This document shows, piece after piece, positions 1-62,909 of a stretch of 64,000 nucleotides of DNA. A program made the position numbers and the translations under genes. Source of the stretch: Bilabrum cf. latius. Lineage: Eukaryota. Within the stretch, counting starts at the first letter, position 1. Every line of letters starts with the position of its first letter. The notes under the pieces were generated by a model. It did no database searches. It was given only the letters and a program-made list of their open reading frames with translations, and was not told the origin of the DNA. Where the stretch lies: contig OZ237742.1 in the NCBI GenBank assembly GCA_965178125.1, positions 434,001 to 498,000 of the forward strand, written 5' to 3'.

Positions 1-2
1 TT

Positions 3-1988
3 GATAGGCTGGGAGATCCTGAGCCGGACGCAGGCGAGGTCGGAGGAGTCCAAGAGGAGAAGGGAGCGCAAGCTACTGGGAGTGTCTAGGCTGGCACACC
101 AGCGAGCGGGGCTGGGGCCGGTGCAGCGGCAATGCAAGACGGTGACGATGCAGTAGATACCGCAACAGGTATAGAACCCAGTACGGCAGACGCGCCTAGA
201 CTCAGACCGGCCGTGGTGGTACTGGGAGCCACATCCAAGCCGGAGAACATCGACCCGGGTCTCAGGCGATCGGGCAGATTCGACAGAGAGGTTGGGCTGG
301 GCATTCCAGACGAGAAGGCGCGGGCGCACATCCTGCGGCGACTCACGCGAGGGATGAAGCTATCTGAAGAAATCAATGTTGAAGACATTGCTAGGCGGTC
401 GCCTGGATACGTTGGAGCTGACCTCGCTGCGCTGACCAAGGAGGCCGCAGTGTGCGCGGTGCACCGCGTGTTCGGAAAGGTAGTGGCGGGATCTGGACTG
501 GGCTCGGCGGCTGCGATCAAGCCTCCAGTGGCTAGCAGTTTGCCAGGCATCGCTGCATCTGGCATGTCTTCGGCGCTGTCCGCATCTGCTGCGGCCACAT
601 CCTCTTCGACCTCGTCTTCCTCCTCGTCCAGCGCTGCAGCGGGCACGACTTCAAGTCAGCGCACGGAGGAGAGCTTCTCCAAGTTCGAGAGGGAGAGCAA
701 ATACTTACGTGAGATGGGCCCGCTCGGCCATGGGCTGCTGGACGAGCTCAAGGTTACGATATCCGATTTCGAAGAGGCACTCAAGAAGGTGCAGCCGTCG
801 GCCACACGGGAAGGCTTCGCCACGGTGCCCAAGGTGACGTGGGACGATGTTGGCGCCCTGCAGAACATCCGAGACGAGCTGCGTCTGTCGATCTTAGAGC
901 CGATTAGGAACCCAGAGGCCTATCAGGACCTCGGCATGCTGGCATCGGCTGGCCTTCTGTTGTTTGGCCCCCCCGGGTGCGGCAAGACTCTGCTGGCCAA
1001 GGCGATCGCGAATTAGAGCGGGGCCAACTTCATTTCCGTCAAGGGCCCCGAGCTGCTTGATAAATACGTGGGAGAATCCGAGCGCGCGGTGCGGCAGGTT
1101 TTCTCCAGGGCCAACGCGTCGGCGCCATGCGTCGTTTTCTTTGACGAGATTGACGCGTTGGCGCCCCGCCGCGGTGGCTCTGGCTCCGGGAATGCCGTGA
1201 CTGATCGGGTTGTAAACTAGCTGCTCACCGAGCTGGATGGCATGGACGTACGACGAGACGTCTTCATCATCGCTGCAACCAACCGACCCGACATCATCGA
1301 CAAGGCCATGCTTCGGCCGGGGCGCCTGGACAAGTTGTTGTACGTGCCTCTGCCCACTGCCAGCGACAGGGCGGCCATCCTGGAGACTCACACCCGCAAG
1401 GTTCCGATGGGCACCGACGTGGACGTGCACAAGCTCGCTCACGATCCTCGCTGCGAAGGATTCTCAGGTGCAGACCTTGCGGGCCTGGTGCGCGAGTCGG
1501 CCATGGAATCTCTTAGAGAGCGGTTGGGTATGGAGCCGAGGGCGGTCGCAGAGAAGAGGATGGCGTCTGCTCCTCGAGGAGTTGGAACAGGTGCGATTGC
1601 AGCGCCAGCGACTGCCGTAGCTTCTACATCCTCGTCGTCTGGTGCTTCAACCGTTGATGTACCAGCCACGCCAGGGGGGACCAAAGCATCCGTCTGTGCC
1701 CGGCACTTCGACGCTGCGTTCGACAAGGTAAGGCCGTCGGTGTCTCGAGCGGACCAGCGGATGTACGAGAGGATCAGGGCCTCCGTGCACGGCCTGAGCG
1801 GGGCAAAGGGCAAGGCTGCGCGAGTGGCAGAAGCAGCCGCGGCCGTAATCAAGGCCTAGAGCAAGGCTGGTCCGGGGGACTCTGGGTCTGAGGCGAGCGC
1901 TGGCGCATCAGGCAGTGCAGCTGACAAGACTGGAGTCAGTGGCTCGTCCGCAGCACCAGTTGGTGCCGGGCCGATGGACGCTGACTGA
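3..1988 (+). CDS. NVL: NVL/Rix7-like double AAA+ ATPase (CDC48 family), 5' end outside window; 4 in-frame TAG
   Basis: One frame joins ORFs 132-1016 and 1242-1859 through TAG 1014 and 1218: [84 protein letters not shown]. Further TAG at 87 and 1857. Ends TGA 1986-1988. Confidence 0.88.
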
Positions 1989-2111
1989 TCTGGGGACGCA
2001 GGTATAAATTAGACACAACGAATTCCGGAATCTCAATCAATCAACAACATACTACCTAGCACCAATGAACTAGAACCTGGCTGGCCGCCAAAACAACTTC
2101 GCAATCCTTCC

Positions 2112-5100
2112 TCAAGTCGACTGTGAGGCGCCCCCTGATTTGCTCAACACCCCCCCGGCACGACGCAGTGGGCTCTCATCTGGATCTGCAGCGGACCGAG
2201 CCTCCCCGATACCTGCGGGCCGGGCATTATTGCCGACGCCGGCAATGCCTCGCCGTGCGTCCCTCGATCTTGCGGCTTCAAATGTCTATGCGGCTGCCTC
2301 GGCCTGCGCCAACGCCCTTGCCAACGCCTCGCCCTGCTGCGCATCTACACCGCGACCAGCACCCGTGGCGGACGCTCGTGCTCGCGCACCAGCACCAACA
2401 GCAAATCCTGGACGTCCGTTTGCAGCCTATGCGGCAGCGCTATTCATGGCTCGCAGGGCAGCGAGGTCGCTCGTGGCCAGTATGGCAGGGTCCGGAAGGG
2501 CCCCCACACTGACGGCTGATTGCCTCGGCGCGCCAGGACCACCGGCTCCTCGCCTGCCATGACTGTGCTGCCCGTGAGTTGCCACCTTGCTCTTCCGCTT
2601 CTTCGATTTCGTGGCACTGGCCCGCTTCCCTCCGCTCGCCGGTGGCTTCCCGCCGGGCCCGTCCTTACTACCATGCGGTCGCGCGGGGCCGGCCAGCGGG
2701 TTGTGGTAGCCCCCTCCCTGCCCGGAATCGCTCAGCCAGTTCGGTCTCGCCCTGCCGATTCCAATGGCACCGCCCCGCCCCCTCTTCGTTTCGCCCCGCT
2801 AGTGGGACTGCCGGGGCCTTCTCTCCAGAGGTGAGCTCGCACGAGACGAGCGTTCGCTGGCTTGGCCACCGCGTTGACTCCCACTGGCACCTGATTGCCG
2901 CTGCGAGCCCGAGCCCGAGCGAGGGCCGGGGCCAGCGCCGCCCTCGCGCGCAGAGCCAGCACCAGCACCAGCATGTCCCCCTGGTCTCATGCCTACCAGC
3001 CCACCTTGCATGGCAGCAGAGGTGCGAGCCGCGGCATGAGCTGCATCGGTTGCATCGCCGGCAACAGGGGTGTCTGTGTCACCACCTCCCGCCATTGACA
3101 ACCGCTGCCAATCTCCATCACCATCCACCCACCTGCGGCGGTCTGGACTGGCAGCCATGCTCCTCGGGCGCTGGTCGTCTGAGTCGCTCGCGTGACTCAC
3201 CGATCGGCTGGACCTGCCGGCCGAGCTAGTTCCATCCCCCCTGTACCCAGCTCTGGAGCGCGGGGGCGGTCGCTAGTTGTCCCTGGCAGACATGTCCAGC
3301 AGTTGCAGCTGCTCTTGCACCGCCTCCTGCGCTGCAGCACTCGCACGAGCCTCACCCGCTCCTGCGTTCGCGGACTCACCCCCGGGGTGTCGCACGATGG
3401 GCAGCTTGGGCACCGCGCTGAGCCCTTTGTCGCCACCTCGTGCACGTCTGGCCGATTGTACCGCCTCATTCGTGAGATCAAGGGGCATGGATGCGTTTGT
3501 GTGCGCTCCTTGATTGCCTCTTGTTCGGCCACCAGCGCTTGCGACGCGGCTGGGGCTCGTGCTGCCGACAGATGGGCCCCTTCCAGCCGGCCTCATCGCC
3601 GTGTCAACGGTACTCTGCTGCAAGCCGCGCATCTTCGGGAGTGCCTCCACGCGAAATGCAGTCCTCTACAAGTCGTACCACCTGCGATCGTCCTTGCCTG
3701 GCTGCTTGCCCTCGCGGCTCGACTCTCCTGCTACGGTCACGCTCCTGGCACTGGCCTCGTCACCGCCCGCCTGCATGTACCGAATGGCATGCAGCCTCAA
3801 GTTGCTGCTGTAGGCAGCCACTTTGCCCAGCTCCTCCCTTCCACTAGATCGGTGCACGCGAACGATCGTCCCGACCGGCAGGTGGGTGTGGTTACACACG
3901 GCCCTCTGGCGCTCTTGCTGGAGCTGCTACGCCAGTGCCGCGGCAGTCTGCTGGGCTTGCGCAAGCGAAAGCGTCATAACCCGGTTCTGTTCCAGAACAG
4001 CAAGTGCAAACGGCCTGGCAGGCCACTTGCGATCATCTAGGTACCTGTGTAGCGCAGGCGGTGCAATTCGCTCCAGCCGTACCAGCTGCTGCTTCTGCAT
4101 ATCGTCCAGGCGACTCTCCAACGAATCGCGGAGCTCCTGCCCGTCCATCTGCCGCTGCAGCTTCTCGTCAACGACCCAGGCAAGCACGCTGAGCACCGTT
4201 TCGTAGAACCCGGCGCCGCCGTCCCCGTCGCTGTCGTCCTCCTCGATGTCCTTGCGGGTCCACCGTGCCGTGCCCCCGCCCGGCGGATCTTCTGCCGACG
4301 CGTCGCTGCCAAAGTGCGGGTATGCGGACTGCAGCAGCTCGTGGAACGCATCGGCTGTCAGCTCGTCCGCGCCTGTGAATGGCCTTGCAGCACCTCCGTC
4401 TGTCGGAGAACCGCCTCCGGGCGAGCTCCTTGGACTGTCACTGGAGGTTCGCGCCAGCAAGTACAGTGCCAAAAGCTGGCGCCGCACCGCGAACGGTGCC
4501 GTGGTGTGCTGCAGAACCTGCCCAACCATCGGAGGAGGCAGCTGCGAGAGCTCCTGCTGCTCGAGGCCGAGGGCTTCCTCTGGCCGCGCGGCAAGCACGA
4601 AGGTACAAAGAGCACGCACATCTGCAGCCGCAATCTCATCCAGCTGGTCAGCCTTTGAGGATACTTCGTCTGCAGGCTTGGTGCGTTCTTTGGAATGGCT
4701 CTCCGAGTCAGATCCTGCAGCAGCCGCGGTCGCGTTGGAGGGCGCCGCGTCACCGCCATCGAGCTCCGCCGCGCGTCGCTTCAAGGCCTCATACCTCTCC
4801 AATGCCGCTGCGGCTCTGCGCTGCCTGGACTTGTTGGTAGGATCATCACCCGCCGTGGACTCTGCTGCTCCTGCCCCAGCAGTGCGTGCTTCGGCTGCAA
4901 CCTCACCAGAACCGGGACCGACGCAACGACTGCAGGCGTGCAGCACGGCAAGACAGTCCGGGATCGGCATGGACTGCGTGTCCAGCAGAGGCAGGAGGTC
5001 GCTCACCTCGTGGGGGCGCGACCCTGCTTGCTGCAAGTACCCGTGCGGCGCTTGCACGCCCGCGGCTTCGCCCTCCCTTAGAAAGCCGTCCCCGAGCCAC

Positions 5101-6494
5101 CCCGACGCAACTTTCCCGGCGCTCTCGCCCGTAGTATCACCGGTCTTGAGCAGGGCAGACCGACGGGCATGCGCAAGGAGCCTCACACGCACGTAGGCGA
5201 GCACAGCCCTGCCAAGTCGGACCAGTCTCCTCTCTGCCTTGGCCCTGCCAGTCTCTCGGCTGCTGCCCGAGGCTGGGCCATCCTCATCGTCTTCGCTTGA
5301 AGAGTCTGGCACGCCGCCCTCCCCGCTCGCTTGCCTCCCGCTCCCACTCGTGCTCCCCGCCGTCCTCCCGCTTGTCAGGTCCAGTTCCTTCCTGCCACCC
5401 TGCTCCGCGCCAGCGTCCCCAGAGGCCCTCAGCCGGGTCCTGGCCTCTTGCGCGAGCAGGAAGAACACCGCAGGGGGTAGTCGAGCAGCAGCACCAGTGG
5501 CATCTCCGGTGCCCAGGCTAAGGAGCCCGTTCCCAGTCGAGCCGGAGCCAGCCGCTCCTCTCCACGACGAGTCTTCCCCCGACGCAGCAGCACCTCCTGC
5601 GCCCTCGCGCTCCCCTTCTTCTTCTTCTTCTTCTTCTTCACCGCCGAGGTCTTGAGGCCTGGACTTGTGCTTGAGGTCGAACTATTCTCGATGAATCTCG
5701 TCCCTGCGCCCTGCCTCGATGGCGGCAGCCTCCTCCTCGAACGCACCCACCAGCCGTCTCCAGGAGACGCCCCTGGCGATCGCCTTGGCGCAGCGCTGGA
5801 CCACGGCATTCTCGGGAGCAGATGCCCCAGCAACGCTCTGCGCGCTCAGTAGTACCCGCAAGGCCTTCTATGGGTCCTGGTCTACTTTCCTGGACAAGAA
5901 CTTGTCCGCGAGGGCCTGCAGGCCGGACATCTGCAAGTAGGACGCAGCTACCCTGACTTGGGCGACGTTGTCTGCGGTGACCAGGGTGGCCACGTTCACC
6001 TCATCCTTGTAGCAAAATCTAGCTACAATGTCGAACACCTCAGCACCGCCTGGGATGGACAGTGGCAGCGGGCCTTCATCGGACGTGTCGTCCTCGAGTA
6101 GAGACTCAAGAAGGGGCGACCCCGTCTTGAGGACAGGATACTTGTGCATGCGGAACACATGGCCATCCACAAGAAACGAAACATCAGCATGAGTTGCGTG
6201 CGCCGGCTCAAATGGCGCAAACTTTCTCTGCTGTTCGCATACGATCACCTGCCCATCCTTGAATCCCAACGCAGCGGGTGTGTCATCCTATCCCACAACA
6301 ACATCTCCAGCCTTAAACACCAGCGTCGATAGGACTAAGTTTCTATGGTACGCATATGAATGGAACAGCTTGGCCATTGTGGTGCTCGGCTTCACCTTGA
6401 AGAAGACTTCGTCATCTTCGGTGGCTTTCTTAACCGACACTGTCAGCACAGCCGCTGCATCCCCACTTCGCGTCTCTGACCCAGACGAACTCAT
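2112..6494 (-). CDS. ~1460-aa protein: SUMO-like N-terminal domain, NPH3-type BTB/POZ domain, putative Tudor-like domain, low-complexity tail; 9 in-frame TAG
   Basis: ORFs 6288-6494, 5868-6269, 3927-5468, 3666-3899, 3273-3650 and 2799-3200 share one frame, separated only by TAG; ends TGA 2112. Motifs EVFFKVKPSTTMAKLF..DTPAALGFKDG (SUMO-like) and FRMHKYPV..IPGGAEVFDIVARFCY (BTB). Confidence 0.8.
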
Positions 6495-7355
6495 GATACC
6501 GACTAAGTTTGCTCAGGCGAACGTGATATGGGCGGCTAAACCCATCAGAGCGCCCCTTCAATGTGCCAATCTGTTCAATTGCAGTTGGGCTCGATTAGCA
6601 CGCAACTCAAGTGAAGCCGTGTCTCGAAACCGAAAATCGGGATTAGTTCTGGGATTAGTTGAGTGGGGATTCGATTCGAGACAAATTTCCGACGGATTAA
6701 CTTGAACTGAGCCTGACATGGTTACATGAGCTGCTAAGGTAGTTTCAAGGCCATGAGTATTATCTTTGATGCTTACATTTAGTTTGAAGAGTAGTCTGGG
6801 TAAAGTTTGATGATGTTTTGATAGTGCCTGGACGCTTCGACTCGACACGTGCCACATTTAATCAAGAGAAATTGGGTTAGGGCTTTGGACTAGTCTGGCG
6901 TAAATCCCGTCGTGATAGATAATCTCATGTGTTCCAAAACACCAGGAGGCTGTGTGGTACCATTCTCACGGGCACCATTGAGCTGCTACGCCCTTCCAGG
7001 ATTCCGTTCGAACCTCCCTCACGTGTCTGCTTGGGCACCTGCTTCTTTGTGCAAATTGATCGAACTCTACGACTATGTCAACGTAAAGTTGATTGTTCAA
7101 ATTAATTAACGCAAGCAAAAGCACTAGCAAAAAGGCCTTCTTGCCGCGTGGTATGCTGGTTGAAGTTAATCCAGAAAATTTAATTCGAACCGAGCACGAA
7201 ATTGGATTAAAATGTGCAATTTAATTATTAATTTAATCCGGATTCGGAGTTTCGAGACAGCACTTGAAAAACCGGACAAATTGCCTACAGGATTCACAGG
7301 CCGGCCAAGCTGGGGCCAGTCTCTATTAGAGTGTTCACACCTAACTCCATACCAA
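6495..7355. promoter_or_regulatory. AT-richer divergent intergenic region with repeated TAATCC/GGATTA motifs
   Basis: Lies between ATG 6494(-) and ATG 7356(+). GGATTA at 6640, 6652, 6694, 7204; TAATCC at 7167, 7234. Confidence 0.55.
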
Positions 7356-10300
7356 ATGGCATATCCAGATGCGAATCCCATTCAACGGATAGCTATTGAT
7401 GACTATGAATTCGCTGCCACGGCATCTGGAACCTTCACCAGGTATATCATCGTCATCGTGCTTAAGGGCAAGGAGTGGTCCGTGAAACGAAGATACTCCA
7501 ACTTCTTGGACCTCCACATGTAGCTTCTCCAGTCCAGGCCTTCGTTGGTACAGACGGTGTACTTTCCTCCGAAGGAGATCTTCTCGACCTTGCTACCTGT
7601 GGTTGAGCATCGCCGGGAGACTTTTCAGCAGTATCTGCGCCGGCTTTCTTAGATTTCTGTGCCGTACGAGGTTTCATCAAGGGGTGTTACACAGGGCTTA
7701 GTGCGACTGCGGGAGTTGGACGAGTTTTTGGAGATTCCACAGCATCTGTTTCCCTCTGCGGTCGACTTGGTCAGGGCGCTCCCTGTTCGCACAGCAACGC
7801 GGCTTGCCGTAGCAAGCGCGGGAACGCAGAGAGTTATCAAGCCTGGAACGCCATTTGCGAGCCCGGGAGCGCAGCGCCTCTCCCGGGGGCGTCGGAGCGC
7901 GCACCTTCAGCGGTCCGCCTCCGCCAGTAGCCAGGCAATGTCGCAAGCCCTGGATGGACAAGCCGCTGCAGACAGGCTCAGCGAGAGGAAACGATCGAAT
8001 TCCGGGGACTCACAGGCGAGCGGGATCTCCCTGGCAACAGTGGAGCCCGGTGCCGGTGGGTCGACCCGCCGAACCGTGCCACCCTCGCTGCCCACGCCAC
8101 CCCCCGCCGTGCAAGCCTCGCTGCTGTCCAGCCCGCCGCTCGCCCCATCAACTTCGCCATCTCAGGGAGCACCGAGAGCCAAGGAGAGCAGCGGCGGTAG
8201 CATGCTTAGCTCGGAGCCACCGCGCCGCAGCTCGATGGTAGACGCCCGCATGCACGGCCACGGTGGGCAGCCCCTCCGGCGAGGACACTCTCACGCGACG
8301 GTGGCCTCGTCCGGCAGCGCGCTGGATGGATTAGATGACTCTCAGTTCCAGGGCAGGAGCTCCCCAGGCGCGTCTAGACGCACCTCATTCGCGGGTGCAT
8401 CTCGAAGGCAGCGGGGGGCCAGCCACGGAGGGGCTGGCCTGGGCGCAGGCGCCCCCGCTGCGCCTGGCCATGCCTAGACATCGAGCGGTGGGGGCGGCTG
8501 GGGGGGCAACAGCAGCTCCAGAGACCCTGTGTTTGCGGGCATGCGCGCGTTCGACTCCTCTGGCGCAACGGGGGGCAGTCCCCTGATCCGTCCGCTCGGG
8601 TCCCGGCCGCCGAGACGAGGCGCGGCTGGGGCAGCGGGCAGCATGACAGCTGAGACGGTGGTGTCGGCGGACAAACGAGTGAAGCGGCTGCTACTCACCG
8701 TCAAGGAGCGGGAAGAGGAGCTCATGCGAGCGGTGGAGCGGCTGCTGACGCCACCTGCCGAGAAGAACAAGCCCAGCACGGACCGCCTGCTTCAGATCAC
8801 AGACCCGGACGAAGTGGCCGTGCCCGACGAGGCCCGCGCCGTCAGGGATCTCTTACGTGCCTGGCGCTCGCAGCCCATGCAATCCCCCGCAGATTCTTTG
8901 GACAGGGTGCGCGAGCTCATCGAGGACCTGGGGGCTTACTCGATCGAGCACAGGAAGGAGATGCTGCGGCCCTACGTGTCGAGGATTAGAGAGGTGGCGG
9001 TGCACGCAGTGCAGTCGGGGCTGGTGCAGTACCTGGAGCGGCAGCTGCAGTCCACCCACTTTCAGGGGATGCGCAGCGCCATGGGCGGGGAGCAGACGGA
9101 CGACGAGGACAAGGCCGCATGGGAGGACGCGTGGAAGCGGGCGGGGCACAAGGTGCCGAGCCGATTCGTGCTCGGGGTACTGCCCTGCCTGAATCTCTTG
9201 TTTAGGAAGCCCCATCAGAGCGGCAAGGCTAGCAACGGTGGCGCTGCTCAGGCACAGGCGGGCGCTCAGGCTGGCTCCGGCGACGAGGAGGATGGCGGCG
9301 AGGAGGACGACGATGGCGAGATCGTGGATGTGGAAGAGCTCTACATTGACGAGGCCACCAAGTACCTGAGAAAATTAGCCCGGCGCGCGGCACAGAGGGT
9401 GGTCATGCTGCCGATCCACCCGGACCTCATGTACCGGGCCCAGCAGTGCGCGGGGGCGGCGGACAGCCTGGTTCACTCGAGGCTGGCAGCAGCGCACGCC
9501 AGGTTTCCCACGCTTCCAGGCCGCCTGTTCGAGGTGCCCCGTGAGATGTGGAAGCGAGTCTCACGGTCATGGGACGACGCCCGCGCCTCGATCGAAGCGA
9601 TGGAAATGCAGCCGCTGCCCTACATGCAGTTGGAAAAGCTGATAGACGCCGCCAGGCAGACCTCCCAGGCCATCACGGACGAGAAACTCGCCCTATCACG
9701 GAGGGTAGCGGCCAGCAGGGGAGAGTCGTCTCCCTCCAAAACGCCGAAATCGTTCGGCCCGGCGGGTGCTGACGAGTTCTTGCCTGGGTTTTTCTGGGTT
9801 GTTGCGAGCGCATTTCCCCACCGCCTTGCAACTATCCACAGCAGCCTCCAGAGGCTCTTGCCGGGGCCAGACGCCAAAGGCGAGGTGCAGTACTTGCTGA
9901 CACACCTCGAGTCATCCGTGATGTTCCTCAGCAGGCTGCACCTCGACGACGACCCGCCAGTGCCGCGCGGACTCGCAGCGCTTCCAGGTGGCGCGGCTGC
10001 GCTGCGACATGACTCGTCGCAGCAGAGCATGCTGGCCTCCCCGGCTCGACCGGCGCTGGGTGTCGCCCAGGAAGGGGACATGGACGTAGAGATGACCGAA
10101 AAGGTGGGTTCTGCCTCCTTCTCGAACCGTGCCTTGGCGATGGATGCGCCTCGCACAGCCTCCGCTCCTGCCGAGCGTGGTCTCGGGAACGGCGCGGGAG
10201 ACGAGATACCGCCAAGCAGCCTCTCAGCCCTGGGCCGCAGCCTGTCTCTCTCCAGTCATGACGATGCGACCATCCCAGGCCTGACGCGCTTCGCTGATGC

Positions 10301-13309: not shown

Positions 13310-13612
13310 GTCGCAAATTACTGTAGCTCTGTATGCAGCAAACAGGGCCAGGCACAGCAAACAGTTTTGTGCAACTCGGAATTCGTGCACTCAATCGTAA
13401 AATGCTTGTGAGGAGCCCACTCGAGATCATGGACATGCCCCCGCCACCCCATTGGATGCTATTTAGTAAGACAAATGGCCCATACTTGCGGCTATGGCAC
13501 TAGCGCTTGCCAAGTATCAAATACATCCGAGTCCAAGCTTCGCTTTTCGCAGCATCGCCAGACTTCGTCCTGGAAAAGCCGTTGCCACCAAGCGGCGTAG
13601 AGTACAAGTGTT

Positions 13613-50160: not shown

Positions 50161-50274
50161 GTGCTGCCGTGCAGTCCGAAGTGCAACTGCAAGTTGGTGC
50201 TGCGGCACCGCCGCAGGTGGCGCGGCGGCTTGTGTGCCGCGGCGCCGGCTCCGCACCCCACGCAATCCCATACC

Positions 50275-53127: not shown

Positions 53128-53356
53128 GTGTATTCTACCGCTGCGCCAGAGGCTTTCGCCTGGCTACTTCTAGCGAATTGACCCGAATGAATACAGTGCC
53201 TGGGTGCATCGCATCGTGCTGTCGTCGCGTCGGGTCGCGCGCCGAGCTTGGTCGCTGGCGGCCAGTGGAGAGAATCAATCGAAGCATTAAAGTGTACAGA
53301 TGAGTATATGATATACTGCACGTGTCAACACGGAGACAATCCTTTCCAGCGCCAGC

Positions 53357-56300
53357 TCACGCCTCTTGGGCGGTCGGGGCTGGGGCCGGGGACACGGACT
53401 TGGCGCCGGAGGGCGACCCCTGGCTAGACATCTCGATTGACTTCTGGTGCGCCCGCGCAGCGGCAAGGTTACCAGACTTGACTCCATCCAGGGACAGCCC
53501 GTCGTCGAAGTGCGGGTGCGCCGGCGGCCCGACAGTCGCGAGCACCACGGGCAGCAGGATCATCCCGTGCCCGATCCCAAGCACCACGCTAAGGAAGAAG
53601 CACTTAAAGAACACCACGAAGATGTAGGACTGCGACACGGAGAGCACCACCACCGCGAGGAAGGTGGAAGTGGCTCCGTTGATGATCGCCACACCCATGT
53701 CCGACAGGGCCAATGCCGCGCGCCTGTCCGTGTCGCCATGCTTGTGCATGAAGGCCTCCCCGAGGTGAAGGCTGTAGTCCACCGCGATGCCGATTGCCAG
53801 CACCAGGTTCACCGACACCACCCCGTCCAGAGTGACATCCCAGGGAACAAGGTAACCCAGGATGTTGAGCAGCACGAGGGCCACCATGAGCGTGAGGTAC
53901 ACCATCATCAGCGGGTGCGCCACCACGATTAGCACGATCACCGCCACCGCAGCTACGGCCAGACCCAGGTTCTGCAGGATCTCCTGCTGCACCACCTTGT
54001 ACTGCTCCGCGTCAAAGAACGCAAAGCTGAACGCGAACGCATACCCAGTGAAGCCCGCCTCCTCGGCAGCCTCCTCCACCTTTGCCCTCGTGTCATCCAT
54101 CGCGTCGATCTCCTCCTGCGAGGACTAGAACGCCCGGAAGAAGGCCGTCACCCTCGCGATGGAGATCACGTCAGTGTTGGCGCTGGCATCGTAGATGATG
54201 TCACTGGAGAACCTGGCTCCCTGCCCGTTGAACCAAGTCTGGAATCCCGCCACGAAGGCCTGCTTCGTGACACCGTCAGCAAACAGGTCGGGCCTGTCTG
54301 TGCGGAACGTTTCGGCCCAGCACAGGACGGGCTGCGAATCGCTCACAAAGGTGCTCTCCCTCAGCGCATCGCACAGGGCTGGCATCACGTTCCTGTCCTC
54401 GAAGACCTGCAGGCTCCTCGCGTACGCGCTGATGGGCCCTCCCGAGTTGGTGAAGTATTCGTTCTGGATGTCGTACCACTCCTGCAAGGGGGAGTCCGAC
54501 GGGACGAACCACTCGGAGCGGAATTCCTGCTTGAGACCGGTCACCTGCCAAGCAGCCACTGCCGCAAGGATGGTGAAGACGGCCACAGTCGCGATCTTGC
54601 CGGGTACCGACAGCAGGTAGCCGGCGTAGTAATGGTAGATGATGTACCGCGCCGCACCAGGGCCGCAGTATCCCTGGCTTGGGACGGGGGGCTCCGGGCT
54701 GATGTACTCTTCTTCTGGCATCTCCTGGTTGTTGTCCTCTTCCATGCTGACACCGCTCGAGTTGACGGCGTTGTCGGCTGCCTTGGGGGCCGCTGCGGAA
54801 GGAGCGGGTAGATCCTTGGAGTCCGGCTGCTTGGACTCAGAAGCAGTCGGCGAGGAGGCGCTGGCGCGAACCGCTGCGGGCGGGTTGCCCTCTGCCGGAT
54901 TGGACACGGCCTAGCCGGCCTTATCCCCGCCCTCCTTGCGCCTCGGGTCCGTCTCTGGGAAGCTGTAGACTGACTCGGGGTGGCCTTCCCCGGACCCGCA
55001 GCAGCAGCAGACGTCGTACCTGCCGTGCGCCTGGCGCTGTTGGTCGAGGACCAGGCATGCGGGGAAGAAGGTCACGGAGAAGATGAACACTGCCGCGATG
55101 GCGAACGCGGCCCAGATGCAGAAGGACGCCAGTGCAGGCAGCTGGGTGCTGGACCCGATCATGAAGGCCACAAAGTCCGTGAGAGTGGTCGTGGTCATGG
55201 AGCTGCCGCCGTGCCTGAGAGCCTCTGCCACCCTGTCCTGGATGTTCCTCTTGGGGTCCGTGAGGGAGTATTCCTGCACCACCACGAAGATGTCGTCGAC
55301 GCCGATGCCGGCCAGCACGAACGGCAGACTGCGAGAGACACAGAGGAAAGGGGAAACAGAGAGAGAAGAGAGAGGATGCGGCGAGCAAGAACAAGCAAAC
55401 GAGGCAAGCAGGGCAAAACATGATCGCGCGGTGGACAGGATCCGCGATTCCATCCATCCCATTCGACGACTCACACAGAATGCACAGGGCTGTAGAAGCT
55501 TGCAGGGGAGCCCAGACCGTAGGCAGCTCCTAGGGCCATGCCCACCGTGAGCGCACCGCAGATGGATAGTCCAATGCGAAGTCCCACGCACGTGCAGTCA
55601 ACCCTGAGCTGGATCGTCATGTAGACGAGGATGAGCATGATGCTCGCTCCAACGAAGGCCAAATCTCCCGTGATGGCCCTCCCGAACTCGTTGCTCACCC
55701 ACCAGTCCGTGCTGATCACCAGCCTGGCATTGGGATACTCGTCGCGGTTGTTGTCCGGGTCGGCGTTCAGCTCGGTGACGAGTTCCTCCTCCCACGCGTC
55801 CGCCACTGGGTCAATGAACTCGCCGCCCTCGAAGTAGGCGTTATCAGCAATCTCCCACTCCAGGGTGGCGGCCGACGCAGACACGATGCCACCTGCGGGA
55901 TATGGGGGAAGAAAATGAATTTTTGTCGTTTACATTGAGAAAGGCGAAATTCGGGGGCATGGACTTGGCCGCCGTCGTGCGGACAAGGCCAGGAGAAAGT
56001 GCATGCGGGAAAAGCACCTGGAAGACTGGCCACGTCACCTGAGGTCAAGCAGCGGTGCCGATGACGTAGAGATGGCGAGAGAGAATGGGAGGAAGCACAA
56101 AGCTCTATATTTACTCACCTTGGTCGTTCGTGGTTACCCCACCAAGTACAGCTTGAGGGGAGAATGGCTGCCCGAACGCGTTGGTGTACCGCCCGCTGGC
56201 AACGGCTTGGTTGATGTAGTCCGCTGGGCTAGTCCCAGACGCCTCTGCTGCCAGAATGACAGTCGCATTGTAGTCAAACAGAGTCAAGATGGAATTCTCC

Positions 56301-56857
56301 TGGCACTCGTAGTCTTCGGGATTCGGCCCCGTGCTGATGCGTGTGCAGATGTCTCGAAGGGTGACGTCCTCCCTTCGAACTCCATTCTGCCCCGTGGCAT
56401 CCGCCGAAACAGAGTACAGCAACTAATGAAACTTTTGTAGATCCTTAAGGACACCATAGTCGGCAAGGACGTTGTCGCCAGACCTGCTGACTGCGTACAC
56501 GTTCTGTCTTCTGGGCTGACGCGGGAATTCAGCGGACACGATGGCAAAGTCTTTCGATGCTTGAGTATCCTGCGGTGACCACAGCTTTTCAGGTCTAGAC
56601 TCTTCTTCATACTGTCCGATTCCAATCAGGAAAAGTCCCATCAACACGATGGAAAGACCGATCGTGATCCACGGGCCCTGGGCGATGAGACGGCCAAGCC
56701 TCGAGAAGAAGTACTGCAAGCCACCGTCAAGAGTAGCGCTAAACTTCTCAAGGCAAGATGGTTCTTGAGGTTCATTTCCACTTGCTGTGGTAGTCGACGG
56801 CATGATGCCAGGCGTGGAAGAGGCAAGAGTGGGCTGCAAAGGCGCAACGTCAGCCAT
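53357..56857 (-). CDS. Patched/NPC1-related sterol-sensing RND membrane protein; introns 55894-56118 and 55329-55474; 3 in-frame TAG
   Basis: PEKLWSPQD, LPFVLAGIGVDDIFV, GSSMTTTTLTDFVAF, AIGIAVDYSLH, GIGHGMILLPVVL; multiple transmembrane segments. Ends TGA. Confidence 0.9.
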
Positions 56858-56973
56858 CAGTCGGCCGCGACGACAACACCATATCTGGCTCCGGATTAAT
56901 GATAGCGTGTTGTTTTGTACAAATCTGATTATCGTACATATTGCTTGCGCAGAAAGCGCCCATTCGGACCGAC

Positions 56974-58887
56974 ATGGCCGGGGTCTCAAGAGAAGATCAT
57001 TCCTCTCACGAAATTGTTGATGCTTCTCACTTAGAGGCCGATGATTTTAGCCTAGGCCTCCATGTAGCCGTATGGAACAATGATCTCAAGCTGCTCGATA
57101 AATTGCTTGCCCTCAAAGAGATAGACTTGGAAACTAGGGACCCTAAAGGTGCCACACCACTGCTACTTGCATATAAGTTGGGCCGTCACAAGGCTGTGGC
57201 CAAACTGCTGCAATCCGGTGCGTACGCAAAACCGCGAGTAAACAATCGTTGGGAAGCTCAGCACTTTGCGGCCTGCACGAGAAACGTACCCATGCTACGA
57301 ACAGCTACATTAAGTATACTGAAAGAAACTGACCTGGCGTGGGAGCGCCGGGTGCCGCGGCTCATGGCGGCCCTGAGGGACATACCTGATTTCGATCTGA
57401 CCATGGAGTGGACGTTCAGGTCTTGGATCCCGCTGGTAAGCGGAATGCTACCCAACGACACAGTCAGGATTCGAAAACGTGGAACTGCGCTTCGGTTCGA
57501 CATGACACTGCTCGGCATGGAGAACCTATCGTGGCAGCGTGGCGACACGCAACTTGTCATGTAGGGCGAGGAGCATGGCAACCCTGGAGCAGTCTTGCTC
57601 ATGGATTCGCAGCTGAAGACCGCTGGAAACGGCAGGACACCCCTGACTCTAGCACCGGACACGTCTGTCCAGGATATTGTGCGAAAAACGCTGACGCAGG
57701 AGCAGTCCGACACGGACGTGTGGAGCAGGGACTGCCACATGACCCCAGTCAAAAAGACCTCCTGGCTCCTGTTCGACTCGGCGGAATAGGCCAGCGAAGA
57801 GGTAGGGGACTGGGGCCAGTGCATGCAGTACAAGCTCTCGGGCATGAAGCTCCGCAGCCTCAAGCATCCGGCCATTTTGCCAGAGCTCCCTCTGGAGTCC
57901 TGGTGGAAGCCCGAGTACGCCCTGGATAGCAGGCTGGCGAAAATCCCAGAGTCGGAGAAACAGCCTGGGATCCGCAACTGGGAGGCAGTAGGGCCTTACT
58001 TCAGGAAGGATACGGAGAAGGCCGGCTCGGCGGGGGCAGCCAAGGGAGGGGCGGGTGCTGGCGGCAAAGGCGGCTCGGGGGCGGGGGCGGGGGCCGATGG
58101 CGGGGACAGAGACTCGCCTCCTGAGGCGGGACTGGCCCCGTTGAAATCGATGATAGGCAAGTTGGAGTCGGGCGGCCTGGGTGGCGCCAGCAGCATCGAT
58201 TGGGAGACAGCGCTGAGTGGCGATGCCGACGGGCTCGCGGACTCTGCCCTTGACAGCGCCACTGTGAAGCAGCAGACCTTTTACTCGTATTTCGAGGGGA
58301 AGAAAACCGGACGAGTGGACCCGAATGACATCCGCAACAGCAACCGGGGCAGCAGGGGCATTTTGTCGCACCACGAACACGAGCACGAGCACGAGGGTGC
58401 TAGAGGGGATGCAGAGGCCGCCGCCGCCCCAGGGGAAGCAAAGGGCGAGGGCGAAGATAAAGAAAGGAAGGAGCGTTCAGCTAGCAGCGAGTCGGTCGAG
58501 GTCAGCATCGCGCCAAAAGCAGGGTGCGAGAAGCTGCCAGTGGCTGACATATACCCCGAGAACGTTCGTTCGGAGGAGAAGGTTCTGGATGCCAGCGTGT
58601 TTTTCAGCAAGGACTTTCCGCTGACGAGCGAGCAGATGGTCTCCGTGGTGGGCGTCATGGCGAGGACAGCCACCCACTTTAAGAACGTGCAGCGCTTCTT
58701 CGAGACCAAGATGCCCCAAGATGCCGGGTTCCCCGTCAAGTTCCAGATCCCTGCCTTCATCTCCGTCACTGCCACGGTGACGTTCAGCAAGTGCAAGCTG
58801 TGCACGCCGGAGGCCAGCCTGTTCGAGGTGCCCGGTGACTTCGAGTGGGGGGCCTACAAAGAGAGAGGCATGATCCGACAGCTGTGA
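56974..58887 (+). CDS. ANKRD13: ANKRD13-family protein (ankyrin repeats + GPCR-chaperone domain); 2 in-frame TAG
   Basis: LHVAVWNND, DPKGATPLLLA, PDFDLTMEWTFRSWIPLVS..KRGTALRFDMTLLG, DFPLT, GFPVKFQIP..ATVTF. Ends TGA. Confidence 0.85.
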
Positions 58888-58960: not shown

Positions 58961-60377
58961 TTAAGCGATACCATCCGCAAAATTAGAGGACCGGTAGAGC
59001 CGGTTCTGCAACGCGGACGGCCGGCCCCCCTGACCCAGCACCGCGTCCGTCTTGCCCGTCTTACCTTTAAGTGCCACAGTGCCGCTGTCCGCGAATCCTT
59101 CGTGCAGCTGCTTGCCCTTCACGGCCCCAGCCACCACCGTCCCCTTCTATGCCGCTGACCGCCCCCTGCCTCCTTGCTTGCCGCTGGCCGCTGCTCCTCC
59201 CTTGCCCCAAGTACCAGCTCCGGCAGTACCTGCAGCGATAGTCGCCCTGGCCGCCGCAATCCCCTGCTTCCTCCTCTTGTCAATCACCTCCCGCTCCATG
59301 CGGCCCTTCTCCGCGCGCTGCAGCAGCTCAATCTGCGCGATCTTGGGGTCTCGCTTGCCCAGGTCGCTCAGCGTCGGGGCGGGCCGGTACGTCCCTCCAC
59401 TAGCCCCCGCATCCCCAGCTGCTCCCGCCGCACCCACCGCCCTATATCTCTGCTGCTCGAGCTGCTCCTTTGACTCCCTGTGGACGCGGGCGCGGGCATC
59501 TCGGACGTTCGCGAGGATCTCCCAGATGGAGGGGGAGGCGGCGGTGCCCAGCTGCAGGCGGGACCGTAGCTGTGCCACCCAGAAGGCTTCACCGAACACC
59601 CTTGTCCTGAGTTTCCTTTGCATTCGGAAGGCGGGGAAGAGCATCGAGGGGTAGTCGTCGTTGATCTTCTTGAACTCGTCGAAGCCGACCTGATCGTCCC
59701 CATTAGAGTCCAATTCCCTCATGAGCGATGTGACCCTGTGGTTCTGGTCGTACATGTCTCCGTAGACCTCCGACAGGAGCTCGTAGACCTCGCTCATGTC
59801 GAGGTAGCCACTGAGGTCAGAGTCGAACAGGTCAAACGAGAAGCGAAGGAGCGCTCGAATGTCCATGCTGCAGTAGTTCCACATCGTGATAACGAATTCC
59901 CTAAACGTAATCTCTCCGGATGCGTCCTCATCTGCGGCTCCAAAGGGCGCAAGCACACAATGGACATGAATCGTTGAGGACCAGCTTCTGCGCTGCTAGG
60001 TTGGAATTCACACGCCCTCACCGATGATAGAAAACACCCTGTCGGCAAAAGAAGATCGTTCGATGTCAAAAAATCGATAGAATTCGTCCAGATCGACCAA
60101 GCCGGTCTAGTCCTTGTCAACTTCAACGAATACGTTGTAGAAATCATCGATGACTTCTTGCTCGACTGCAAGCCCGCCAAAGAATCAGTGTTGGAAGTTG
60201 TGATAGATAAAACCTATGTTGTATGATTGATCCCACTCATGCGTGAAGAGACTCACGTTTTAGCTTAGCAAAGTCTCGTACTGCTTCCTACCCTTGACCT
60301 GGTTTCGATTCGTTTGGCACGAAATAGCTCTTTGTGTGAACCTTTTTAGCGCCAGTCACTGGCAAACAGTTTCCCAT
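58961..60377 (-). CDS. Four-EF-hand calcium sensor (calcineurin B/CBL-like) with MGNC N-terminus and basic tail; introns 60166-60256 and 59932-60021; 3 in-frame TAG
   Basis: EF loops DKD*TGLVDLDE, DEDASGEITFRE, DSDLSGYLDMSE, DSNGDDQVGFDE; YPSMLFPAFRMQ. Ends TAA 58961. Confidence 0.8.
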
Positions 60378-60525
60378 TAGTGTCAACGGTGCTTCTTGCC
60401 CATGAATATACGGTCTGGTGCCTGTATACAGTCTGCCTGGAGTGGAGCGCGTTGGGTTCGTTGGCTAAACCGAACGTTCTTTCGAAGCACTGTTTGCTGC
60501 TTGAGGCAACTGCATATTTTTTGCC

Positions 60526-62909
60526 ATGAAGAGGCGCGGTGGTGCGGGTAGGAAGCGCCCTAGGGATGAACAGAATGATGATGCATAGGATCGCAAGCGT
60601 GGAGTCTCCTTGAAGAACTCTATCCGCTCTTTGCGCCGTCTCCTCGTCAGCAAGGTAAGGCTTCAATTTATTTTTGCCCAGGCCCTGTAATTGGACAGAA
60701 CGGCAGCGATGAGACTTGTAAGAGTGTTAAGCCTTATTTTTCCACGCAGTGGGACGAAATGTCATTCGAGGCTAGGCGCCAGAAAGTTAGGATGCTCCGC
60801 AAACAGCAGCAGGAACTCGATGAAAGGAAGCGAAGCGAGAGAGAGCACGCCCTGCTGCTTCGTTACAGGGGAATCATGTTTACGGAACGATAGAAGGCAA
60901 GGCGACGTCTCAAGCAGGTTGAGAAGAAACTTGCATCCGAAGACGCGAGCGGAGGGGATCTCGATTCGCTTCAGTCCGACCGCCTGCGCTACCTGGAAGA
61001 TATCGCGTATACGAGGTGGTTTCCAAGGGGACAGAAATATATCAGTCTGTACCCCTCGCGGGAAATGACGGAAGCAGACATCCGACGCCGCGATTGGCTG
61101 AGAAAGTGGGCACTGGCGAACGCAGCCGCCGAGAAGCACCTGCCCGATCCCCCAGAGCTGCTCCCGGGCTAGAGGAGAGAGCTGGCGCACGCACTGACCG
61201 ACCACAAGAAGAAAACATAGCAAGGAAGCGAACCAGCTGCAGCGGCATCATCCTCTTCATCCACCGCTTCCTCATCAGAACCAGCGTCAGCGGCTGGAGC
61301 GGAAGCGCAGGACCTGGATGAGGAAGCCCTCATTTCTCAGGCAGCGGAGGCCAGCAAAGGTGCAGGAGCGATCGCTCTCCTCAGATAGTTCCAGACCAAG
61401 GCACTCGTAGTGAACGTTCGTCCAGGGGAACAAGGCAAGAAGCCGAAGCCCATCAGCGACGACCGGCCAGATCTCTAGAGGCGCAAGGGCAAGGGCAAGG
61501 ACAAGGACGAGCAGCGGGGTGCCGGCAAGTCTGAGTCGCCTGAAGCTGCTAAGGAAAGTAGTCCCGGCACAATCAAGGGTGCAGATAAGTCTGCTGTGTC
61601 TGGTAGCTCGAACCAGCCCGCGTCATCGTCCGGCTCCGATTCTAGCAGTGATAGTAGCAGCGATGACGGTAGTGGTAGCGACAGTGGGAGCGAAAAAGTC
61701 GGCAGTCGTGCTGCTGCCCCAGCTCCAACCCCAGCCCCGTCCTCATCCTCGTCTGCATCGTCGAGCAGCTCAAAGCACAGGCCTACGATGGCCCAGCTAG
61801 AGGATCTCCTGGACCCGAGGGCAGCCAAGCGGGCCCAGCGGATGGAAGCCAGGAGGGGCATGCAGGACGCAAGGGATCTTGACAGCGAGATGGGAGGAGC
61901 TGCCGAGGGGGAGGGTGACGGGGTTGGGTCTCGGGGATCGAAGGGAAGAGGGAGTGGAGGGGGTTCAGGACTGGAGCCTGTGTCCGCGGGGGGCGAAGAG
62001 GGTGGGGAGGCGGGGGCTGCTGCTGCTGAGGAGGAGGAGGAGGAGGTGGATGATTTTCTCCTCGGGGGCGGGGACGACGACGGTGATGGGGGTGATGGAG
62101 AGGAGGGAAAGTAGGGCGACGGATTTTTGCTCGCAGGGGAGGAAGGCGATGAAGAAGAGGGGCAGGGTGGGGAAGAAGATGGGTCGACCGGTGGCGGGTC
62201 AGCGCATGGACCAGCAGCCAAGAAAAGGAGAACAGCGGCCTCCACTGTGCCTCTGTTCAAGAAAGAGGAGAGCCTGTTCGAGGAGCTGGGGGACGGCTCT
62301 GACATGACCGAGGTGCCGGGCAGCTGGCGCGCTGCTTTCAGGGAAAAGGATCAGGGCAAGGCGCTCCGGAGGATGGCGTTCCAGGCCCAGCAGGGGGACA
62401 CTGGCCTCACGGCAGAGTTCAGGGGCCGATACAGCGACACTGCCGCCAACAGGAAGGGCAAGTCGGGCGGGGCGTTGGATCGCGTGAAGAAGTAGCTGGC
62501 CCGGGCGTACTTGCGGGAGATGAGGGGCCGAGGGCGGGGTAGAGGGGCTGGGCGCGGGGGCATGGGTGGGCGCGGGGGCATGGGTGGGCGCGGGGGCATG
62601 GGTGGCCGCGGGGGCATGGGTGGCCGCGGGGGAGGGCGAGGGAGGGGGCGAGAGGGGGGGCGTGGTGGAGGTTTTGGTGCGGATTATGGGAGGGGGCGCG
62701 GAGGTGGAAGTGGTCGAGGCGGCTACGGGGGTCGTGGGAGGGGCGGAGGGTTTGAGCGCGGTAGGGGGGGTGGGGGCCGGGGCGGGTGGGCCGACCGCGG
62801 TGGTGGTCGAGGTCGAGGTGCATCGGGAGAAGGGACGGGCCGGGGAGATCACAGCCATGCGCCGAGGACAACCGCAGGTCCGGCAGGGCGCAAGCACATG
62901 ACATTTTGA
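60526..62909 (+). CDS. EFG1: rRNA-processing protein Efg1 with long acidic and RGG-rich extension; intron 60655-60749; ~8 in-frame TAG
   Basis: LKNSIRSLRRLL, MFTER*KARRRLKQ, DIAYTRWFPRGQKYISLYP match Efg1 motifs. The frame continues through TAG to TGA 62907. Confidence 0.8.
62550..62630 (+). repeat. 18-bp coding repeat, ~4 copies (GRGGMG)
   Basis: gggcgcgggggcatgggt repeated within the RGG tail. Confidence 0.85.

Follow-up and report, generated by a model that had tools for sequence, protein, structure and literature searches.

Evidence for UAG as a glutamine codon, with UGA and UAA as stops, in a GC-rich protist genome window

In codes of the table-6 type, UAA and UAG together specify glutamine, and such codes are used by many ciliates, ulvophytes, hexamitids, oxymonads and an aphelid. 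In the passages of two reports drawn on here, a code in which UAG specifies glutamine while UAA and UGA are stops is described for Iotanema spirale and four ciliates (PMC11687900), Protocruzia tuzeti, Hartmannula sinica and Trochilia petrani being named along with Iotanema (PMC5304391, PMC11687900). The same passages assign UAG to leucine in a rhizarian and in ciliate MAGs and to serine in Scotinosphaera (PMC5304391, PMC11687900), and give the terminators of the rhizarian exLh as UAA or UGA only, in 56 and 15 cases, respectively (PMC5304391).

Here we analysed one 64-kb stretch of DNA, referred to below as the window. Judged from sequence comparison, its nuclear code in all probability reads UAG as glutamine and retains UGA, the main terminator, and UAA as stops, which corresponds to NCBI table 15, in a GC-rich, gene-dense and intron-poor protist. 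The core of this reading, namely UAG as sense and UAA and UGA as stops, was supported by uninterrupted domains, by transcripts, by comparison with two sets of relatives and by the conservation of gene ends among orthologues.

Gene ends and the stop codons TGA and TAA

As summarized in Table 1, 24 gene ends were traced in this single window, as opposed to the whole genome, and about eight of them have their position fixed by homology or by an orthologue. With 20 ends at TGA and four at TAA, the inventory agreed with the preliminary description (about 20 and four), and all 14 stop positions named there proved to mark the ends of real genes. One further gene, the 25th (HSF), continues beyond the edge of the window.

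Table 1. Genes traced in the window, with their stop codons and in-frame TAGs
Gene	Positions	Strand	Stop codon	In-frame TAG	Other features
NVL/Rix7-type AAA ATPase	3..1988	+	TGA 1986	4; 1014 and 1218 within AAA domain	5' end off window; Pfam AAA 1.9e-51; PDB NVL 3.6e-163
BTB-domain protein	2112..6494	-	TGA 2112-2114	9	Pfam BTB
PX-VPS9 protein	7212..11909	+	TAA 11907	5, of which 2 in PX domain	Pfam PX, VPS9
Gamma-glutamyl hydrolase (GGH)	12311..13390	-	TGA 12311-12313	13066, 12403	Pfam Peptidase_C26; PDB GGH
Spliced gene, no assigned function	13553..14430	+	TGA 14428	14368	Exons to 13465, 13553-13724, 13809-14430
TFIIS	14650..15759	-	TGA 14650-14652	2	Pfam TFIIS_M, Zn_ribbon_TFIIS; two 5' introns, 15519-15605 and 15675-15758, from spliced contigs
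ODAD1-like outer-dynein-arm docking protein	15951..18153	+	TGA 18151	10, last at 18118	Pfam ODAD1_CC; introns 17289-17486 and 17705-17849
Laminin_B-domain protein (LamB)	18294..19346	-	TAA 18294-18296	None	Pfam
6-Phosphofructo-2-kinase/fructose-2,6-bisphosphatase (PFK2)	19645..23401	+	TAA 23399	6 exonic, incl. 20102	Pfam 6PF2K, His_Phos_1; introns 19548-19644 and 19847-19937 from spliced contigs
C2H2 zinc-finger array, 87-nt period	24553..25513	+	TGA 25511	3, in motif NH-TAG-C	
1246-codon protein, no Pfam family	25930..29670	-	TGA 25930-25932	Up to 19	
CRAL/TRIO protein	29337..30359	+	TGA 30357	1, within domain	Pfam; tail scores coding
Secreted beta-helix protein	30506..32722	-	TGA 30506-30508	3	Pfam Beta_helix downstream of TAGs
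UMP synthase (OMP decarboxylase then OPRTase)	32855..34498	-	TGA 32855-32857	None	Pfam
Low-complexity protein, no family	35208..37190	+	TGA 37188	5	
Small gene (last exon at least)	37412..37957	-	TGA 37412-37414	2	Codon-usage score 24.1
Large Ser/Thr kinase	38861..45301	+	TGA 45299	5, upstream of kinase domain	Pfam Pkinase 1.1e-52
V-ATPase subunit A	46374..48584	+	TGA 48582	46579, 46404	Several short 5' exons; Pfam
REX4/ISG20-type exonuclease	48706..50271	-	TGA 48706-48708, then directly TAA	5, incl. 49473	Pfam RNase_T
GT61-type glycosyltransferase	50275..53214	-	TGA 50275-50277	5	Pfam
Patched/NPC1-like sterol-sensing-domain protein	53357..56900	-	TGA 53357-53359	At least 3	5' exons upstream of 55591; Pfam
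ANKRD13-like protein	56941..58887	+	TGA 58885	2	Pfam ANKRD13_C match to residue 627/648
EF-hand protein	58961..59956	-	TAA 58961-58963, then directly TGA	1	Pfam
Efg1-like rRNA-processing protein	60759..62909	+	TGA 62907	7, of which 1 within Efg1 domain	Pfam

The growth of open reading frames by itself is weak evidence for a code, since reading TGA as sense lengthens them even more than reading TAG as sense does (83 versus 48 ORFs of at least 300 codons). At the stops, the mean GC content drops from 0.65-0.68 to 0.49-0.52, and the frame-0 codon score was at most 0.025 in the 90 nt past every TGA or TAA. No in-frame TAA or TGA was found to interrupt a Pfam-supported gene of the window, in keeping with the earlier statement that the joined frames lack both codons, and wherever an ORF border interrupted a domain, an intron accounted for it. 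The in-frame TGA at 50275 joins the GT61 and REX4 ORFs, and the 38 codons that follow it scored as non-coding (-0.059 per codon).

Orthologues provided a second line of evidence. The metagenome contig L001 is syntenic with the window, 45-75% identical to it and carries in-frame TAGs of its own. In five window/L001 pairs, both proteins terminate at the same residue, the stops being TGA/TAA in GGH, TGA/TGA in the spliced gene ending at 14428, TFIIS and ODAD1, and TAA/TAA in LamB; the C-termini shared before TGA are ...FV in the spliced gene, ...RFNA in TFIIS and ...GFQ in ODAD1. In addition, the alignment of human TFIIS runs to query residue 284 of 286, which anchors this TGA within two residues, and the relative P0274 and the product of the 25930..29670 gene have their final residue in common.

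Under a code of the table-6 type, UAA would be sense as well, too rare at 60% GC to be noticed, and the four apparent TAA ends would read through to the next TGA. The TAA ends indeed number only four, the following in-frame TGA is found 1-40 codons past them, and the 19 codons past the TAA of PX-VPS9 score 0.147. Over 90 nt past TAA, however, the frame-0 score was negative in all four genes (PX-VPS9, -0.109; LamB, -0.281; PFK2, -0.148; EF-hand, -0.369), and the orthologue pairs place the TAA of LamB at one residue in both organisms and a TAA of L001 opposite the window TGA of GGH. Moreover, 22 ORFs with 16,931 codons in total contained no in-frame TAA, whereas by our own arithmetic about 23 would be present if TAA:TAG were used as CAA:CAG (127:510). 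A joint reassignment of UAA and UAG is thus extremely improbable, and in this small sample UAA is retained as a stop together with UGA.

In-frame TAG codons and the sequence beyond them

About 100 in-frame TAGs lie within real genes of the window; 94 were counted among the same 16,931 codons, and the Pfam best-stretch envelopes enclose 19, in 11 genes. That such codons go untranslated, as missed introns, pseudogene lesions, sequencing errors or sites of mRNA editing to CAG, might be argued from one raw-ORF TAG (PFK2, 19901) that does fall in an intron, and from the +2 frame break near 25160 in the zinc-finger gene. Against this stand the 19 TAGs within contiguous Pfam matches, and decay would hardly have left about 100 lesions of one stop codon and none of the other two.

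Transcript-type contigs bear on the same point. The contigs of runs X5, X7 and X8 show GT..AG or CT..AC skips that are not seen in the DNA run X1; the run labels read "RNA? (probably DNA)" for X5 and "RNA?" for X7 and X8, so that their RNA nature is inferred from the spliced joints. Over positions 1-20000, including the BTB gene, these contigs differ from the window in no other letters and leave its TAGs unchanged. Since DNA and spliced contigs agree letter for letter, the TAGs escape editing. In ODAD1, they join 17288 to 17487 and 17704 to 17850; an end of this gene at 17309 was considered and rejected, as the spliced translation runs on to the TGA at 18151. Furthermore, relatives either share the TAG positions or have glutamine codons there, and predicted gene fragments of relatives (P0121, P0275, P0276, P0278 and P0280) break off exactly at window TAG positions. 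Taken with the domain matches, these observations make untranslated TAGs scarcely credible, and UAG as a sense codon was shown to be common to at least two further species-level relatives of the window organism.

The absence of TAG ends cannot be read from ORFs alone, and thus the coding score of the sequence after TAG was tested. In 16 of 18 genes, BTB and PX-VPS9 among them, the sequence past the last TAG gave a coding score, highest in frame 0; the two exceptions were REX4, with a tail of only 14 codons, and Efg1, with an RGG-repeat tail. As had been noted in the preliminary description, no gene ends convincingly at TAG.

Context-dependent codes, in which one codon serves as both stop and sense, are known from Condylostoma and Blastocrithidia, and UAG could likewise be sense inside genes and also a terminator near some 3' ends. 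TAGs do occur 7-19 codons before TGA in ODAD1 (18118, 10 codons), the spliced gene ending at 14428 (14368, 19 codons), the gene ending at 37188 and REX4, whose tail fails to score as coding, and 24 ends are too few to speak against a minority use. None of the 24 ends requires TAG, however, and near-terminal TAGs were not enriched (four of 24 genes have one within the last 20 codons, versus 2.5 expected from TAG density), while most tails score as coding. The C-termini past the near-terminal TAGs of ODAD1 and the 14428 gene are, moreover, conserved in L001, with both species stopping at the same TGA. Dual use of UAG is accordingly regarded as very unlikely, and UAG appears to act as a sense codon throughout.

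The amino acid opposite TAG

Two sets of relatives were compared. In alignments with relatives 80-97% identical, glutamine faced TAG at six of seven sites, the seventh being an arginine beside a gap; these alignments also paired Q with Q at 40/44, E with Q at 2/102 and K with Q at 1/49 positions. Among 24 well-aligned TAG partners in L001, the residues were Q 12, K 4, A 3, D 2, W 1, E 1 and L 1, the Q-to-Q pairing of ordinary glutamines being 0.49, and the log-likelihood was -47.2 for Q, -70.2 for K as the next best and -80.8 for E. By this measure, the comparative signature of TAG was shown here to be that of glutamine.

Individual positions illustrate this signature. The column aligned with NVL TAG 1218 is Q in 120/120 homologues. 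V-ATPase A TAG 46579 coincides with Q in the conserved motif IQVYE in 5/5, and REX4 TAG 49473 faces Q in 3/4, of the PDB alignments among those listed. Relatives have Q at ODAD1 TAGs 16167, 16263 and 16992, as do both the relative P0159 and L001 at PFK2 TAG 20102, and P0274 (88%) and P0275 (82%) at TAGs 26430 and 28668 of the 25930..29670 gene.

Meanwhile, several positions could be taken to indicate a different amino acid, namely glutamate, lysine or leucine, and UAG as glutamate has precedents in peritrichs and Blastocrithidia. The column of NVL TAG 1014 is E in 114 and Q in 4 of 120 homologues, the fish and human GGH proteins have E opposite both GGH TAGs, and PFK2 column 863 shows E most often (E 31, D 27, S 23, Q 4); lysine stands opposite TAG at four of the 24 L001 partners and at V-ATPase 46404, which faces K of archaeal A-ATPase, and one L001 TAG lies opposite a conserved W. 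Glutamate is nevertheless opposed by the likelihoods, as is lysine, by its rare pairing with Q in the near relatives and by its absence (0/120) from the invariant NVL column, and leucine was found opposite TAG at none of the seven near-relative sites and only once in L001. The deviating columns (NVL 1014, GGH, PFK2 863, V-ATPase 46404 and the L001 W) fit E/Q exchange and ordinary divergence, though they count as genuine counter-evidence. An amino acid other than glutamine is highly improbable for UAG.

Decoding, lineage and comparison with described codes

A tRNA with the anticodon CUA, combined with an eRF1 that has ceased to read UAG, would be a reasonable basis for the glutamine reading. 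Such a tRNA-Gln would read UAG without pairing with UAA and could most simply derive from tRNA-Gln(CUG), while eRF1 may have lost recognition of UAG, or be outcompeted for it, and kept that of UAA and UGA. No tRNA gene was found in the window or in L001, and the window holds no eRF1 gene. Since the classic eRF1 motifs of the rhizarian with UAG as leucine showed no obvious change in the account of Pánek et al. (2017, PMC5304391), inspection of these motifs may not be decisive.

The best protein matches of the window, whose DNA is 60% GC, are to oomycetes, diatoms and brown algae, and the commonest taxon in the nearest Atlas cluster of its UMP synthase is Bacillariophyta. No ciliate signs were found in the window, with its GT..AG spliceosomal introns of 84-198 nt, high GC content and stramenopile best matches. 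The L001 contig is 53% GC. On balance, we favour an independent origin of this UAG-glutamine, UAA-retaining code in a GC-rich, UGA-terminating clade that belongs to neither the ciliates nor the metamonads and is perhaps a deep relative of stramenopiles. Such a clade would comprise no fewer than three species-level lineages, namely the window, the relatives 80-97% identical to it and L001. Under such an origin, GC pressure should favour UAG and not remove it, so that AT-driven disappearance of the codon (codon capture) could not explain the reassignment, which would point instead to the ambiguous-intermediate route.

The table-6 codes resemble that of the window in that UAG specifies glutamine, the decoder most likely being a tRNA-Gln whose anticodon has mutated, and differ from it in that UAA is sense, whereas UAA terminates in the window. 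The leucine codes of the rhizarian exLh and the TARA ciliate MAGs, as given in the passages used, likewise decouple UAG from UAA (PMC5304391, PMC11687900), in contrast to the near absence of leucine opposite the window TAGs.

Closer likenesses are found in the table-15 organisms. The fornicate Iotanema spirale is described as having the same codon table, with UAG never a terminator (Pánek et al., 2017, PMC5304391), and its predicted decoder is a tRNA-Gln(CUA) derived from tRNA-Gln(CUG), as CUA cannot pair with UAA (PMC5304391). Iotanema, however, is a metamonad with UAA as its predominant terminator according to the same source (PMC5304391), whereas 20 of the 24 ends of the GC-rich window are TGA and its nearest named protein matches are stramenopiles. 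Hartmannula sinica, Trochilia petrani and Protocruzia tuzeti are reported to share UAG as glutamine with UAA and UGA as stops (McGowan et al., 2024, PMC11687900). In the parts of that report consulted, UAG is spread along the genes of table-15 ciliates like a glutamine codon and without dual use, as in the window, and UAA terminates 93.5-100% of the C-terminal alignments (PMC11687900), in contrast to the dominance of UGA here. The decoupling of UAA and UAG proposed in the preliminary description stood as far as UAG as sense and UAA and UGA as stops are concerned, and as a phenomenon it is rare but precedented in Iotanema, ciliates and others. The table-15 type of code itself has thus already been described, and the window, which is GC-rich, dominated by TGA ends and not of ciliate type, appears to represent a new lineage using it.

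Termination codons and gene ends

Within this one window, 24 gene ends were traced and verified letter by letter, giving TGA at 20 ends and TAA at four. This inventory agrees with the about 20 TGA and four TAA ends of the preliminary description, all 14 of whose stop coordinates were found to be right, and it includes several added ends as well as a terminator reassigned on the basis of spliced contigs, which revealed that the 3′ end of the outer-dynein-arm docking-like gene (ODAD1) is spliced (Table). None of the 24 genes ended at TAG, as had been claimed. For the tails beyond the last TAG, the claim stood in 16 of 18 genes, in which the stretch from that TAG to the stop scored positive with frame 0 best; the exceptions were REX4, with a stretch of 14 codons, and Efg1, whose tail is an RGG repeat. 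The score used was a codon-usage frame score trained on gene bodies, which replaced GC3, uninformative in Ala/Gly/Ser-rich tails. In the 90 nt past each TGA or TAA, the frame-0 score was at most 0.025 per codon, and the mean GC of the 22 gene ends profiled fell from 0.65–0.68 up to the stop to 0.49–0.52 just past it.

The TGA of GT61 was the sole in-frame TGA joining two ORFs, and the next 38 codons scored −0.059. It lies in the frame of the REX4 ORF, one codon apart; REX4 likely starts about 38 codons downstream, leaving about 115 nt between these tandem genes. The absence of internal TAA, also noted earlier, was verified in 22 long ORFs, where none was found and about 23 would be expected if TAA:TAG followed CAA:CAG. 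No pile-up of TAG near gene ends was observed, since 4 of the 24 genes carried TAG in their last 20 codons, with 2.5 expected by density.

A public metagenome contig (L001; 52.8% GC) carries six genes collinear with part of the window (Table), encoding proteins 45–75% identical to those of the window and having their own in-frame TAGs, mostly at other sites. The ends of the orthologues (window/L001) were conserved: TGA/TAA after ELWY in gamma-glutamyl hydrolase (GGH), TGA/TGA after FV in the spliced plus-strand gene ending at 14428, after RFNA in TFIIS and after GFQ in ODAD1, and TAA/TAA in the Laminin_B-domain protein. The GGH pair shows an exchange of TGA and TAA at one terminator position, and the TAGs of ODAD1 and the 14428 gene, located 10 and 19 codons before the respective ends, are read through into conserved C-termini. 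The end of TFIIS was further anchored within two residues by human TFIIS, and a database fragment from a close relative (P0274) shares its last residue with unk1246, the minus-strand 1246-codon protein without a Pfam family that ends with TGA at 25930. Spliced contigs ended at about 18119 (run X5, from piece lengths) and 18140 (run X7) in ODAD1 and at 14393 in the 14428 gene, past the last TAG and before the TGA; these positions are cover limits and uninformative on termination, and the question of both ends was settled because the C-termini are conserved in L001.

Coordinates of features in the window
Feature	Position	Strand	Observation
Spliced gene	14428	+	TGA; added end
Small gene	37412	-	TGA; added end
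Zinc-finger array, end	25511		TGA; added end
ODAD1	18151		TGA, instead of 17309
GT61 TGA	50160-50277 region		
REX4 terminators	48703-48708		TGA-TAA in tandem
EF-hand gene terminators	58958-58963		TAA-TGA in tandem
Convergent gene pair	2009-2028		
Convergent gene pair	30359-30506		
Convergent gene pair	48584-48706		
Convergent gene pair	58887-58961		
Block collinear with L001 (1-9619)	12311-21500		Six genes, same orientation
Tandem repeat, 72 nt	14486-14712		3.2 copies, 98% alike
C2H2 zinc-finger array	24553-25470		87-nt period, 10.5 copies
Zinc-finger frame break	near 25160		+2; spacing 89 vs 87
Perfect tandem repeat, 32 nt	25552-25679		4 copies, just 3′ of zinc-finger TGA
UMP synthase	32855-34498		OMP decarboxylase, then OPRTase

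In-frame TAG and the residue assigned to it

The 22 long ORFs contained 94 in-frame TAGs in 16,931 codons, together with 510 CAG and 127 CAA; one of the 94 was intronic (PFK2), and a few extra TAGs were found in small hand-added exons. Nineteen TAGs fell within Pfam best-stretch envelopes of 11 genes (ODAD1_CC, 7; AAA and PX, 2 each; Peptidase_C26, TFIIS_M, 6PF2K, His_Phos_1, CRAL_TRIO, RNase_T, GT61 and Efg1, 1 each). ORF length was discarded as evidence for TAG as a sense codon: ORFs of at least 300 codons rose from 23 under the standard code to 48 with TAG as sense, and further to 83 with TGA as sense, since TGA occurs more often in GC-rich DNA than either of the other stop triplets.

Nine skips of 84–198 nt with GT..AG or CT..AC borders were seen in the contigs of runs X5, X7 and X8. 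Since these intron-like skips are missing from the DNA run X1, the three runs were treated as RNA-derived, a status inferred from splicing only; the run labels, "RNA?" for both X7 and X8 and "RNA? (probably DNA)" for X5, are no more than guesses. Over positions 1–20000, the spliced contigs had zero letter differences from the DNA, although contigs can mask minor variants. UAG is therefore retained in the assembled transcripts, which excludes mRNA editing as the explanation of the TAGs. In addition, fragments of close relatives predicted under the standard code (P0121, P0275, P0276, P0278 and P0280) terminate exactly at window TAGs, and those TAGs are therefore conserved.

As for the amino acid, several TAGs faced conserved glutamine, namely site 1218 of the AAA ATPase NVL (120 of 120 homologues), site 46579 of V-ATPase A (the Q of IQVYE in 5/5 of the alignments shown) and site 49473 of REX4 (3/4 of the alignments shown). 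Other columns were dominated by different residues: E in 114 and Q in 4 of 120 homologues at NVL site 1014; E in vertebrate GGH at both GGH sites, where L001 has Q at one and D at the other; E 31, D 27, S 23 and Q 4 at PFK2 column 863; and K of archaeal A-ATPase opposite V-ATPase site 46404. These rows fit surface E/Q/K exchange, and they do not outweigh the calibrated comparisons with relatives described below. A third TAG in the 5′ exon of V-ATPase A (about 46250) presumably faces an aromatic residue. The TAG at NVL codon 29, placed by MAFFT in an L column (118/120), was dropped, as it sits in an unalignable insert.

The first comparison set nine database fragments, 80–97% identical, against three window proteins and covered seven window TAGs. 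TAG faced Q at six and R at one (unk1246 TAG 364), which adjoins a gap and was retained in the tally as the lone non-Q site; in the calibration, ordinary Q faced Q at 40 of 44 positions, E faced Q at 2 of 102 and K faced Q at 1 of 49. The second comparison, with L001, was made in both directions, and sites were kept if at least 5 of 10 flanking residues were identical. The 24 TAG partners were Q 12, K 4, A 3, D 2 and W, E and L 1 each, and one more site was TAG in both species; ordinary Q faced Q at a rate of 0.49. The log-likelihoods were −47.2 for Q, −70.2 for K and −80.8 for E. Close to the C-terminus of the window GGH, a conserved W faces one of the L001 TAGs (GDPAWAEVELWY).

These two calibrated comparisons point to glutamine as the meaning of UAG. 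The proposal that UAG is decoupled from UAA, which remains a stop together with UGA, was borne out by the conserved orthologue ends, the coding tails past TAG and the UAG kept in transcripts. For one window and 24 ends, the observation is confirmed and, at the level of sequence, the core interpretation is supported, namely a codon table in which UAG specifies Gln, with UAA and UGA as stops.

Gene organization and repeats

GC content across the 64-kb window ranged from 56 to 67%, both strands were crowded with genes, and introns were scarce and short. The products identified by Pfam were ordinary eukaryotic housekeeping and flagellar proteins, including NVL/Rix7 AAA ATPase, TFIIS, V-ATPase A, UMP synthase, PFK2/FBPase2, an ODAD1-like protein and an HSF-type factor. 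The domain order of the UMP synthase is the reverse of that in the animal and fungal fusion and occurs in some protist groups. Convergent gene pairs stand 74–147 nt apart from stop to stop. Contigs of NVL ended at 2028 and 2012 and those of the opposing BTB gene at 2009 and 2012 (runs of two studies), an overlap of about 20 nt; 3′ UTRs appear very short or overlapping, of which contig ends are at most a weak hint.

The final 16 TFIIS codons, with the TGA and the 21 nt that follow it, are contained in the 72-nt repeat, whose copies are in frame; both DNA and RNA contigs break there. In L001, only about 80 nt separate the convergent TFIIS and 14428 genes, and the repeat expansion is therefore specific to the lineage of the window. 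In three units of the zinc-finger array the motif is NH-TAG-C, with TAG at the position that is GAG (KH-E-C) in the remaining eight, and the frame break in this array could be an assembly error in the repeat, a real frameshift or the mark of a pseudogene.

Decoding and comparison with known codes

Scans for tRNA genes gave none in the window or L001, the Rfam scan of the window was also blank, and an eRF1 gene was absent from both. A reader of UAG but not UAA requires the anticodon CUA, one change from tRNA-Gln(CUG) (PMC5304391). From such established knowledge, the decoder would be a CUA tRNA derived from tRNA-Gln(CUG), and eRF1 would no longer compete well at UAG and would still recognize UAA and UGA. 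Pánek et al. describe a UAG-reassigned rhizarian whose classic eRF1 motifs are not obviously altered (PMC5304391), and motif reading may therefore not settle the role of eRF1.

The top named matches of NVL were oomycetes, diatoms and brown algae, and the nearest UMP-synthase cluster was mostly Bacillariophyta; in a single-gene NVL tree, the window fell on a long branch with environmental sequences, outside the ochrophyte and oomycete clade. No report of nuclear UAG reassignment in stramenopiles was found in the literature searched, supplements excluded.

Few nuclear codes split UAG from UAA, and ideas on code change can be tested against each new origin. Because this case comes with spliced transcripts and genomic sequence, as well as two or more related lineages, it could be used to date and compare the gain of the tRNA and any change of eRF1. 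Standard-code gene callers split these genes at each TAG; truncated fragments of relatives are already in the database, and annotation of the clade therefore needs NCBI table 15. This table, with UAG read as Gln and UAA and UGA as stops, is described for Iotanema spirale, Protocruzia tuzeti, Hartmannula sinica and Trochilia petrani (PMC5304391, PMC11687900). The kind of code is therefore already known, and the window adds a further case. Other decoupled codes covered there read UAG as Leu (a rhizarian and ciliate MAGs) or Ser (Scotinosphaera), and one ciliate code reads UAA as Lys and UAG as Glu (PMC5304391, PMC11687900, PMC10553269). The window is unusual in that its DNA is GC-rich (60%) with UGA as the main terminator, whereas the table 15 cases, as far as described in those texts, use mostly UAA; such a setting does not fit AT-driven loss of UAG, and the apparent lineage of the window is unlike that of the described cases.
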